NCBI GenBank assembly: GCA_000934665.2
Contig: KZ538718.1
Location: forward strand, 1 to 52,303
Length of the DNA stretch: 52,303 nt
Source: Catajapyx aquilonaris
Taxonomy: Eukaryota
Direction of reading: 5' to 3'
Below are positions 22,777 through 27,200 of this stretch, one piece after another; positions within the stretch are counted from its first letter, which is position 1; every line of letters begins with the position of its first letter. Under the pieces are notes generated by a model, which ran no database searches, was not told the origin of the DNA, and saw only the letters and a list, made by a program, of their open reading frames with translations. A program made the translations under genes and the position numbers.

Positions 22777-22869
22777 TCAGTATGGCACATTTGAGAATAG
22801 GTATGAAACAGATTCTCCATTGTGGGTTCTGCGGACAGCCTCGGCAAACATCATCGACACATCAATGCA
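22777..22869 (-). CDS. Prps: Alternative (distal) duplicated last exon of Prps
   Basis: TTTCAG| acceptor, 93 nt, [30 protein letters not shown]; same length and phase as 24390-24298. AATAAA downstream at ~22151 (-). Confidence 0.93.
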
Positions 22870-24297
22870 CTGAAAGGAAAGACACAGCAACATATTAGGA
22901 ATCATGATTTACATAATCCGCACCACACTTGACTCCCATTCATGCAGACACTGATTCCAATTAAGTTTGTATTGTGTGGGTGGATAACCTTGAAATTAAT
23001 AATTTCTAATATAACCCATTTGGCTTCATATGTCAGTTTCCACCCACTCCCTTATCTGAATGCCACCATTTACAGACACTTAAAAGCGATATAAGCAGAA
23101 TAAGGATTGCAAAGACACTGAATTGTCATGTCTTGTGTTATAATTTCCTTTTGATGCAAGCTGATTTCTATTACATGAGTTCAAGACAAATGAAACAGTT
23201 ACATAATTATGGTACATACAGTATGCAGTATTAGTCTGTTCATGCATGCATTATTAGGATTTAATCACTCCCATTATACTGTTGCATGTCAAAACCCTCC
23301 AAAGATAGCGACGAATGCCAAACTGGTAATTAATTTTCCATTTAATTACAAATATATTATTCAGCATGTACTACTCGCTAAAAGTTCCATTAATTTCTTT
23401 AATTCCAATTATTCTCATGATCCACGAACTAGCAAGAAACTATCAAAGTTCTCATTAATTAATTTATACCTTCTGAAAATTGACTAATTCATAACTTGCA
23501 GTACACTCTGGTGGGGAGGGACAGTAAAAAGAAGAGTTAAAAAACAAGGACACCAAAGGACATGACCTGGTAAACACGGAGAGAGGGAGAGTCTTGTCAC
23601 ATCTACATTGAAGAAATTTCTCCAGATTTAAAGCACATCACACTGGGCACAAGATCACGACATGACTCTCCAAAGGCAATCACATACTCATTGTAATGTA
23701 AACTGGACACTGCCTACACCAGTTTGGTAAGTGAATTAACTACAAAGATTACTGAATTTAGCACAATTTGATCTTTCATACGCAGTATATGATTAAAAGT
23801 TGAGGAATGGTGAGGGGGGAAGGCAAATGCTATGATTTTGTCAATCTCACTTCCGTTAATTGAAGATTGACTACGGATGGGGTTCACATATGCATGTTCC
23901 TGTTTTGCATATTTAAGACAAATTCTGTTAATTGCATGCACTATGCTCAAAAGTGCAATATTATCACTGACAGAAGTCACAAAAAATACGATGCATCCAT
24001 CGATTATTCCATGTAATCAAGCCGCACCTTCCAATAACGTGAATGTGAGCTTATTCTGGTACGCATGGCAGCACAAAGTTTGCCGTTTGATATCAAACTC
24101 TCTCAATTTAGCCCATCATTTTCGTTTACAATTCTGTCAGGAACAGTTGCACTTACATGCAAAATAGTAAAAGTGCATTCAAAACATCACATCCAAACAT
24201 GCGGATTCATGAAAGAAATCTACTAACATGTACTTGGTTAGCAGTTTTTAAAAGGTTTATCAGAGCCTTATTTTTTAGCACGGAAAAATAAGGCATT

Positions 24298-27200
24298 CTA
24301 CATGGGGACATTGGAGAACAGATAGGAGACAGATTCGCCATTGTGAGTCCTTCGGATGGCTTCCGCTAGGATCATCGAGATATCAATGCACTGAAAATGT
24401 AGAAGGTAGCCAGGCAATATTAGCAGAAAGGAAAAAAAGATCACGCTAACACATGCTTGGTGTTGTCACAACATCTTTCAGGTCAGCTTGTTAGAATCAA
24501 AGTGCTGAGAACTCCACACTTGTTTAAAAAAAAGGTGAGTCAATTAGTCAATGCCAGTGTACAGGAGAAAATCACTTGAAAAGTGGCACTGTTTTATGCT
24601 AAACCTTGTGCAATCCATAACTTGAAGGAACTTTGGACTCTTACATCTTTCTTTCTTTTCTTTATGCCATGTCATATAAGCAGGGATGACAGATATACCG
24701 CAGAACAGCAGGCATGACTTGCTTCCTAGTTATCTTGCATGACCAGCAAACACAGTAAACTTGGAAACACTGCTCAGATGCCTGCAGATGAAGGAAATGA
24801 GAGAAATGTTGCGGCTGACCACAGTCCAAAGTTCCCCAAGACATGCTCCTTACACATGGAGTAACAATAAAAAAATTTCACTTTTCACATGTGAAGGACA
24901 TGACCTCATGTCCTTTCCCAACACATTTAATTTCTCAAATTGGCTCATGAATTCTCATGATGCACTTGTGCTATACATATACAGAATACTTGGAATAAGC
25001 AATTAGAGTGAAGAAACTGTAACAGTAACAAGTCTGTATATGTATAAAAAGTTGTCGAATCTTGTTAGAGTGCTCAAATTTGTCCTGAATATGCACTAAA
25101 GGAAATAATTTTTAGGGACAATCTATAGTAGTTAGATAATATTCAGTGAAAACTACCAGCATTAAATGCATGAACTTGCAAAACATTTTCATGGCAAATC
25201 TTGGCAAAAGTTCAAGTTAAAAATAGATGCACACAAGAACCTTTTGTCTGTAATCCACATTATGTAAGGTTTTTTCTGGCGACAATCGCATCTTAAATCG
25301 CTTGAACTAGTCTAGCATCAATCGCAGCATTTTGCGTGCTTCCTGTGCTTTTATGCAAATGCTGATAACGGCCAGCTACATGCAATCAATTGCAAATTAT
25401 CATAATTTTAATTTGCAGCAGGTCCATGCTGCTCGTGCAAAGGACCTTTTATCAGCAGTACTCAAGTTATGCGGCAAATACAAAATGCTGGTGTAGAGAA
25501 AAGGTTATGAACGCAAATATATTCTCTATCTATTGCAAATGCACATGGGAAATAATCGCAGTAACCATACCTGAATCTTAGGGCAATCCTTCATGTGCTG
25601 CTCTTGTGGAATGGTGTTTGTGACAACCACAGCCTCAAAGCATGCGTTGTTTATCCGGGATATAGCAGGCCCAGAAAATATCCCATGGGTCAAGATGGCA
25701 TACACTTTCGTTGCCCCAGCTTCCAAAAGCCTGTTGGGGAAGTTTAATTAATTATACACCAATATTACAATAGCTACCGCCTTTGGTATTGAACTGCTCT
25801 TAATTATATCGTACTTGCAACCTACAGACATGTAAATTAAGCGACTCACTTCTCGGCAGCATGGCAGATAGTCCCGCAGGTGTCGGCCATGTCGTCAACC
25901 AGTATGGCAACCCTATCCTTTACATCTCCAACCAACACCATGGAGGCTACTTCGTTAGCCTTCTTCCTCTCCTTGTGAATCAGAGCAAACTCAACATTGA
26001 GCCTGTCTGCTATGGACGTCACCCTCTTCGCTCCACCAGCATCTGGAGACACAATGATGCTGTTGCGCCATTCGGGGATGTTCTCCTTGATCCACTTGAG
26101 AACGGCAGGCTCAGCATAGAGATTGTCCACAGGGATGTCAAAGAAGCCCTGAATTTGGGACGCATGCAGGTCCATGGTGATTATGTGATCAGCACCCGCT
26201 ACGGACAGCATGTTGGCCACCAGCTTTGCAGAGATGGGTGCACGGCTCTATGGTTCAAAGTAGCAAAATGACTGATTAAATTGTGAAAAGTAACGTACGT
26301 GTCCAGTTTCAGTAGAGTTGAAAAAATGTGTTAGAATCATGGCTGCAACTGCAGCAGTGGCCATTTTATCTGATTATACATCCTCCATTGTAACATTTTA
26401 TTAACATTTCTCCTTTGACTTGCTCTTTATCAATGAAGTATAGAAAGACGCTGCGAAGTTGAAATCCTTCATGAACATGATGCAGCCTATTTTGATTAAC
26501 TGTAGATTTTCTCTTCATGTGAAAGTACAAGTATGTAATACACAGGTTATCCTTGCTCTGTCATATGCAGCAACCGCATAAAATAACGAAGTATAAAAAG
26601 GTCTCGTATAAATTTGCAGCTATAAAGGCAGGTGTTATGTGCATGAAGTTTTGCGTTCAGGAATCTTAATGAGTGCTCACACACCAGTGCAGACGATACG
26701 CTCGCTTACAAAAGTATCTCCTCTTGTGTGCCCCACAGTTTGTCATAGGATTCCCATAAATGCCTGCATACGTCAAAGTATCAGCATCATTTCGACCTAT
26801 ATCTCAGCCATTACAGAAAATAATTTCATTCAAATGGAAGCCATTGGTCAACAGAGAGTATTATATGATAATCCACTCCTGTCTGTTTCACCATGGTGAC
26901 GTAACATACTGCTCCAGATTATTCCATCTATAGCACTGGCTTATCTCCTGGCCACTGCTGCAAAACATTATTGAACATGCTGCAAAAAAAACCTCTCCAT
27001 GCAATGCGACCTCTCATCACTAACTACAAAAATTTTGTTCAGAAAAAACTGACTCCCTGCAACAAAAAAACGTGGGGCCCCACTTCTACCTTCACAGAAT
27101 ACAAATCTGAAGTTGCGATGCTCTGTGAACAGTAAAATCAAGTCAGTGTAAAATGACTACATGACTTCCAAGATGCAAATGGAGATCCAAACGGATATGC

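Follow-up and report, generated by a model that had tools for sequence, protein, structure and literature searches.

How does a gene that carries two copies of its last coding exon, one behind the other, make use of both? The question is raised by a 52,303-nucleotide (nt) stretch of the genome of Catajapyx aquilonaris (GenBank assembly GCA_000934665.2, contig KZ538718.1, positions 1 to 52,303; the whole of this stretch is hereafter called the window), whose minus strand bears a gene, from a pancrustacean arthropod, that encodes a Class I PRPS (ribose-phosphate pyrophosphokinase) and in whose 3' part the last coding exon is duplicated. The two copies are here designated A and B, with A lying upstream of B in the direction of transcription. 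Assembled transcripts show that A is an internal cassette exon which carries a stop codon and is spliced onto a common last exon, B, and that the assembled mRNA form encodes a C-terminus of the ancestral type (..NVPM), with B as 3' untranslated region (UTR). The explanation that we favour, and consider fairly probable, is that an old tandem duplication gave rise to the two copies of the last coding exon, and that inclusion or skipping of A, a stop-carrying cassette spliced onto B, switches the C-terminus of the enzyme.

Transcript structure of the PRPS gene

The transcript data are represented by the assembled contigs of one public run (X1), derived from one sample, which were placed on positions 21000-32500 of the window. 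Of the sampled words of the window, 0.72 are present in the run, and 15 of the 17 placed contigs are at least 99% identical to it. Six GT..AG joints of the PRPS gene were found, including 25571|24390 and 24228|22869, and depth was 113-494 in exon contigs compared to 2-9 in intron contigs. One contig of 970 nt follows the gene in the order 31510-31332 | 31005-30822 | 29336-29313 | 26247-25850 | 25730-25571 | 24390... The contig crossing 25571|24390 runs 25-30 nt into A, and since A and B share just 9 nt at this place, the assembled path is from exon 4 to A. A second contig joins the donor of A (24228) to the acceptor of B (22869), and a third, of 765 nt, spans 22128-22869; its end consists of 23 loose T on the plus strand, i.e., of a poly(A) tail. 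The depths of the A and B contigs are 494.3 and 491.9, respectively; as contig depth cannot rank the parts of a gene, no ratio is drawn from these values. The following features of the gene were defined in this manner:

31332..31537, minus strand: PRPS coding exon 1, with ATG at 31537; covered by a contig over 31510-31332, joint 31332|31005
30822..31005, minus strand: PRPS coding exon 2, joints 31332|31005 and 30822|29336, GT..AG ends
29313..29336, minus strand: micro-exon of 24 nt (KQHGVIAT), joints 30822|29336 and 29313|26247 within one 970-nt contig
25850..26247, minus strand: PRPS coding exon 3, joints 29313|26247 and 25849|25729 (the latter read with the cut at +1), matching PF00156 and PF14572
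25571..25730, minus strand: PRPS coding exon 4, joint 25571|24390, ending ..PKIQ in phase 0, donor CAG|GTATGG
24228..24390, minus strand: exon A, internal, 163 nt, joints 25571|24390 and 24228|22869, both GT..AG
22870..24227, minus strand: intron between A and B, 1358 nt, GT..AG (joint CT..AC on the plus strand)
22128..22869, minus strand: exon B, the last exon, 742 nt, defined by the 765-nt contig ending in poly(A)
22150..22155, minus strand: AATAAA, the poly(A) signal (hexamer scan), with cleavage 22 nt further on, at 22128

Exon A consists of 90 nt of coding sequence (24390-24301), a TAG stop codon (24300-24298) and a 70-nt tail that extends to the donor CAT|GTTAGT. The first 90 nt of exon B (22869-22780) can encode 30 residues and are followed by TGA at 22779-22777, the remainder being 3' UTR; when exon A is included, all of exon B is 3' UTR. 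A first-pass annotation of the window, made from the sequence alone, had described the two copies as 93-nt exons, a length which is correct for the coding parts including the stop codon, whereas the contigs delimit exons of 163 nt (A) and 742 nt (B). The spliced frame encodes a PRPS of 354 residues ending in ..NVPM with A, and one of 354 residues ending in ..NVPY without it. Read-through of the A stop codon into B was also considered and was rejected, as B would be out of frame by one base after the 70-nt tail.

Exon A has an acceptor (24390) and a donor (24228) that are in use, the TAG codon lies between them, and the frame would stay open with A skipped, an event not seen in the X1 contigs; these are the properties of a cassette exon that contains a stop codon. 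Mutually exclusive exons would be represented by one copy per mRNA, whereas A and B are joined in one mRNA, so that exclusivity of the two is possible only at the level of translation. Similarly, alternative last exons would require a proximal poly(A) site, whereas A is spliced onward at 24228. The architecture is, therefore, neither that of classical mutually exclusive exons nor that of last exons with separate poly(A) sites, and the cassette duplicates the very exon that it displaces. A search for intron pairings that might loop out A returned six short inverted pairs of 14-27 nt with 70-100% complementarity, including one of 17 nt (82%) between exon 4 (25583-25599) and the A-B intron (23094-23110); all are treated as chance occurrences. 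No Rfam family was found in the window.

Class I PRPS are recognised by Pribosyltran_N, Pribosyltran and Pribosyl_synth domains and by high identity to known PRPS, and the gene is assigned to this class as exons 3, 4, A and B match Pfam PF00156 and PF14572 above the cut-offs and as its identity to known PRPS is high. In sequence it is closest to the genes of non-holometabolous insects. Exon 3 exhibits 100% identity to several insect PRPS, over 317 columns the spliced core shares 94% of residues with the PRPS of Bacillus rossius (identity), and among the 45 best matches listed this core is separated by 15-27 mismatches from many insects alike. Exon 1 is translated into 28 residues followed by MPNIKVF...SNLET, and the peptide KQHGVIAT of the micro-exon sits between ..ARQDKKDK and SRAPISAK... 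At the place of this micro-exon, variable inserts are observed in insect and decapod isoforms (P0006, P0016; P0288 compared to P0196).

Conservation and distribution of the two copies

Both copies are preceded by ..TTTCAG, start with TGCATTGAT and encode 30 residues followed by a stop codon, with A ending in ..NVPM* and B in ..NVPY*. They differ at five of 30 residues (exon positions 4, 7, 8, 12 and 30), silent changes are present in 14 of the 25 conserved codons, and 23 of 90 nt differ overall; the residue and silent-codon counts, together with the TTTCAG acceptors, are exactly as given in the first-pass annotation. The likeness is limited to the coding part, since outside it just 26 of the 80 upstream nt and 25 of the 103 downstream nt agree, and a repeat search returned the pair as a 92-nt direct repeat with 79% identity and a spacing of 1521. 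Positions 160-183 of the 184 of PF14572 are matched by each copy alone, with 34.2 and 31.9 bits against a cut-off of 27 bits. Being adjacent and homologous, of equal coding length, in phase 0 after exon 4 and with the same TTTCAG|TGCATTGAT acceptor, the two exons conform to tandem duplicates. A tblastn search showed exons 1-4 to be single-copy and the last exon to be present in exactly two copies in the window, and with A and B spliced into one gene neither of them can be part of a gene fragment of its own.

The A peptide is identical to the C-termini of the PRPS2 proteins of Limulus and Tachypleus, of PRPS from the nematode Acrobeloides, and of an insect-like PRPS (P0005) encoded by a 1845-nt Logan contig. 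Furthermore, 27 of 29 residues are identical between A and human PRPS2, and PRPS1 chains match the same positions, i.e., 290-318, so that A is of the vertebrate/chelicerate type. Drosophila CG6767 (P0216), which represents the pan-insect type, and Artemia (P0131) have a C-terminus identical to the B peptide; of the first 201 proteins retrieved, 132 contain it without any change. These matches are in agreement with what had been stated in the first-pass annotation, namely that A resembles the vertebrate enzymes and B that of Drosophila.

In total, 310 proteins were retrieved from a database clustered at 90% identity, in which isoforms may hide. Their C-terminal residue is Y in 221 proteins, M in 49 and L in 17, the end being another residue or broken in 23. 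All insect-named proteins that end in a complete copy of this exon are of the B type (..NVPY), and no A-type insect protein was found in nine clusters led by an insect, of which 3-40 members apiece were read; a tenth cluster, that of P0005, has one member. A-type ends are found in chelicerates, nematodes and collembolans (Folsomia X1/X2 and Orchesella). In addition, three JGI fragments (P0304, P0306 and P0307) possess an exon 4 which ends as in the window and is joined to an A-type exon, and elsewhere these fragments bear residues typical of collembolans. In the region of residues 103-119, P0005 has VTLIPCFPFAWQGKKDK immediately after a similar 18-residue stretch; another small exon may be duplicated here, or the assembly may be at fault.

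Protein pairs that resemble the A and B forms are present in prawns. The X1 and X2 isoforms of Macrobrachium rosenbergii (P0289 and P0193; 411 residues) differ only in their last 30 residues, as the A and B forms do, and the same is true of X1 and X2 of M. nipponense (P0291 and P0196; 412 residues). One member of these pairs ends in ..NSVPL and has I295, L296 and I300, as in A, while the other ends in ..SNVPY, as in B. The Macrobrachium isoforms are automatic RefSeq models known from protein sequence alone, and their copies differ from those of the window.

Metagenome contigs were scanned with a degenerate DNA pattern for the stretch common to A and B, which returned 40 loci. Exon 4 and a B exon are 49-135 nt apart in 15 of these loci, some of them near-identical to one another, leaving no room for A; in another 15 the two exons are contiguous, these being either cDNA-like or genomic without that intron (L003 and L018); in eight, exon 4 is off the contig; and the remaining two, L035 and L040, exhibit tandem last exons. 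L003 and L018 lack the intron that precedes the last exon, but have one within exon 4, and this pattern indicates that intron positions at the 3' end of PRPS vary between lineages. L035 contains, in this order, exon 3, an exon 4 with 92% identity to that of the window, an A-like exon with a stop codon, and a B-like exon into which a small intron is inserted. L040 (7412-10083, minus strand) encodes a more distant animal PRPS, whose tandem last exons are 2.5 kilobases (kb) apart and have good acceptors. Its copies end in ..NVPI* and ..NVPL*, the second being VIDVSMMLAEAIRR..NVPL*, and, as in the window, exon positions 4 and 7 are occupied by I and I in the first copy and by V and M in the second. 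Judged from these loci, the A-then-B layout also exists outside this genome, yet in a minority, L035 being the one locus of the 40 that shares it. A predicted protein of 428 residues from a 166-kb ENA contig (P0121) was also noted to contain several tandem copies resembling the PRPS last exon, read in shifting frames, which suggests a tandem array of this exon in another eukaryote.

The metagenome loci also bear on the selection that acts on the two copies. B differs from the nearest B exons among them by 15 nt in 14 codons, all of them silent; it is at least 15 silent nt apart from every other B exon seen, its 30 residues all equal the insect consensus, and its peptide equals that of 25 of the 40 loci. 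A differs from its counterpart in L038 by 15 nt, again all silent. Since much silent change is present without the replacements or frame damage that would be expected of an untranslated copy, we infer that both copies are translated in this lineage, which in the case of B would require skipping of A. The earlier proposal of an old duplication with both copies under purifying selection is upheld by these silent-only differences from the nearest relatives.

The simplest account of the distribution, and one that we somewhat prefer, would be a single old duplication followed by the loss of A in most insects, although the characters on which it draws are few and consist chiefly of the final Y. The A/B pair probably predates the split between decapods and hexapods, most insects having kept B only.

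The proposed C-terminal switch and competing explanations

PRPS makes phosphoribosyl pyrophosphate (PRPP), which is the entry metabolite for purine, pyrimidine and nicotinamide adenine dinucleotide (NAD) synthesis. Positions 2-30 of the duplicated exon align with residues 290-318 of human PRPS1. According to the part of a preprint available to us (bioRxiv 10.1101/2022.06.27.496812), hexamers of human PRPS1 stack into filaments via E298, R301, R302, N305 and E307, while residues 306-315, for which order is seen in the filament only, complete the allosteric site. Assembly and activity are both abolished by truncation at S308 and by the disease changes I290T and V309F. The role of this segment in the allosteric site and in filament contacts, which had also been stated in the first-pass annotation, is documented for human PRPS1. 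The contact residues E298, R301, R302, N305 and E307 are all present in both A and B and are invariant in a 32-sequence alignment. The positions that differ between A and B correspond to 292, 295, 296, 300 and 318 in human numbering, none of which is invariant in the same alignment.

Based on their i, i+4, i+8 spacing, residues 292, 296 and 300 would line the buried face of a helix, and the combinations I/I/L/I in A and V/M/F/V in B look like two packings of one hydrophobic stripe. The differing residues are hydrophobic neighbours within the filament-contact segment rather than the filament contacts themselves, so that their likely effect would be one of tuning: filament stability and allosteric activation or inhibition would be shifted, rather than catalysis as such.

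In the assembled form exon 4 is spliced to A, where the stop codon ends the protein and the GT donor 70 nt further on joins A to B; in the proposed switch, if A is skipped, exon 4 would be joined to B in the same phase, yielding the insect-type C-terminus (..NVPY). The inclusion or skipping of one cassette exon would in this manner switch PRPS between two C-terminal helices. As both copies are intact at the protein level, both isoforms are probably made in some tissue or stage. If this is true, the pan-insect C-terminus doubles as 3' UTR sequence in this species.

A number of points weigh against the switch. The first-pass annotation had foreseen two joints from exon 4, of which 25571|24390 is present in the contigs; the other, 25571|22869, in which A is skipped and which is needed for the translation of B, is not listed in the one run, although contigs cannot show absence. 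The kind of run that X1 represents is unrecorded, and it is read as RNA on account of its spliced joints, its poly(A) tail and its contrast in depth between exons and introns. All five residue changes between A and B are conservative, and none is located at a known contact. The A-like exon of L035 has eight replacement differences from A as well as a weak ..AAG acceptor, and may be decaying. Finally, the orthology of the decapod Y-exon and insect B rests essentially on the final Y, and the duplications in the two lineages may possibly have been independent.

Among the competing explanations, the one that best survives, and which we nevertheless regard as improbable, holds that B is no longer translated in this species, A having become the sole coding end and B persisting intact in the 3' UTR because this change is recent or owing to a constraint at the RNA level. 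It is consistent with the sole mRNA form recovered, in which A precedes B and for which no 25571|22869 joint is listed, and with the annotated proteins of basal hexapods (the collembolans Folsomia and Orchesella) and of chelicerates, which are A-type only. However, an untranslated stretch should gather replacements, frameshifts and stop codons, whereas the acceptor, phase and stop position of B are intact and its 30 residues match the insect consensus despite at least 15 silent nt that separate it from all other B exons.

Considerably less likely is the model of the first-pass annotation, in which exon 4 would be joined directly either to A or to B, the two being last exons that exclude one another and that differ in their 3' UTR and poly(A) site. 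The identical acceptors, phase and coding length of the two copies, as well as the protein-level constraint on both, would suit such an arrangement, but the GT donor at 24227 is used and A is joined to B, so that both copies are present in one mRNA (24228|22869) and A has no terminal 3' UTR of its own in it. Furthermore, a hexamer scan detected neither AATAAA nor ATTAAA for about 890 nt behind the A stop codon (24297 to 23404), the intron between A and B containing no AATAAA and its first ATTAAA at 23403, and the only poly(A) tail seen in X1 is at 22128, behind B. Between 24228 and 22870 the X1 contigs provide cover at intron level only, which speaks neither for nor against such forms.

In vertebrates mRNA decay is associated with stop codons located roughly more than 50-55 nt before the last exon junction, a distance exceeded by the A stop codon at 70 nt upstream of junction 24228, yet it is most unlikely that A is a regulatory poison exon whose inclusion leads to decay, with protein made from the B form only, because the A form is the one that the assembler kept, complete with poly(A) tail, because the C-terminus encoded by A is a perfect, full-length one, the same as in horseshoe crabs, and A differs from L038 only silently, and because A-ending PRPS transcripts exist in other organisms (P0005, P0304, P0306 and P0307).

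Comparison with known systems and neighbouring genes

Exons 9 and 10 of pyruvate kinase M (PKM) are mutually exclusive, and the segment that they encode governs allostery and oligomer state. Exons Ab and Aa of U2AF1 are mutually exclusive exons that arose by tandem duplication, as described in the accessible part of PMC6821156. As in the present PRPS gene, the alternative exons of PKM and U2AF1 are adjacent and homologous, of equal length and phase, and give rise to isoforms that differ by few residues. In contrast to the PRPS exons, they are internal and exactly one is present per mRNA, while the PRPS mRNA holds both copies and exclusivity is provided by the stop codon of A; the choice in PRPS is to include or skip a single cassette exon, which is not the case in PKM and U2AF1.

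More tentatively, and as a proposition that we hold to be less likely than the switch in this species itself, a PKM-like PRPS switch might have operated in Pancrustacea for several hundred million years. Two co-adapted filament-stacking helices would then provide tissue- or stage-specific stability and feedback sensitivity; in most insects the derived version would have been fixed and the ancestral exon lost, with both being kept in this species, in decapods and in at least one soil arthropod, that of L035.

A further comparison is offered by the retinal variants of IMPDH1, in which splicing at the termini alters filament assembly and feedback inhibition (PMC10849882 and PMC10542554, in the parts available). 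IMPDH1 resembles PRPS in being a filament-forming enzyme of nucleotide synthesis with terminal splice variants, but these variants are extensions rather than duplicated exons, and their effect has been assayed in IMPDH1, whereas the PRPS forms are known from sequence. Vertebrates possess two PRPS isoenzymes with different regulation, PRPS1 and PRPS2 (PMC9221600), which go back to the duplication of a gene or segment in jawed vertebrates (PMC12238573), as far as the accessible portions of both papers report. The first-pass annotation had drawn a parallel between this split and the A/B pair; the parallel does not hold for the segment in question, since human PRPS1 and PRPS2 match exon A over the same residues with 46.4-46.5 bits, so that no difference of the A/B kind is present between them.

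A full-text literature search returned no paper that describes alternative C-terminal PRPS exons, in prawns or in insects. None are described in the available parts of PMC9221600, PMC7403961, PMC12238573 and bioRxiv 10.64898/2026.06.01.728777, and in the available part of the main text of the latter the words 'arthropod' and 'insect' do not occur. The proposed switch is of an ordinary kind, in a gene for which the literature searched holds no description, and the RefSeq models of prawns already include PRPS isoforms with different C-termini.

The pair is of interest as the activity and allosteric control of human PRPS are tied to filament assembly via the segment that this exon encodes, and a natural alternative pair kept apart by selection represents a ready experiment on the non-contact residues of the filament helix. 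The locus also suggests an origin for the insect-specific C-terminus of PRPS, namely an exon duplicate that replaced the ancestral exon, and it provides an example of alternative splicing that came before an isoform was lost. Annotators are also warned by it that a perfectly conserved 'coding' exon can lie in the 3' UTR of the main transcript.

Among the neighbouring genes, one with F-box and leucine-rich-repeat features (32374-33719, plus strand) and PRPS are arranged head to head, the distance to the first coding exon of PRPS being less than 1 kb. A GT..AG joint of the plus-strand gene, 32374|32441, is present in X1 at a depth of 6, and no homologue was found among proteins of 434-2000 residues. 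Runs of N at 7951 (1), 41887-41895 (9), 44177-44261 (85) and 51776 (1) represent assembly gaps, all of which lie outside PRPS. Two neighbouring, paralogue-like genes, in which an RNA recognition motif (RRM) is followed by RGG repeats, are located on the minus strand at 6338-7711, with 3676-6307 and 11066-12487; one of them contains a long, near-perfect tandem array encoding ..GGRGRGRGRGGRDGMKRSFDTSADSMTR.. about a dozen times. Lastly, the exon at 17667-18077 (minus strand) presumably belongs to a gene for the translation initiation factor eIF4E, which its product resembles (..KGGRWLINLEKRQR..).

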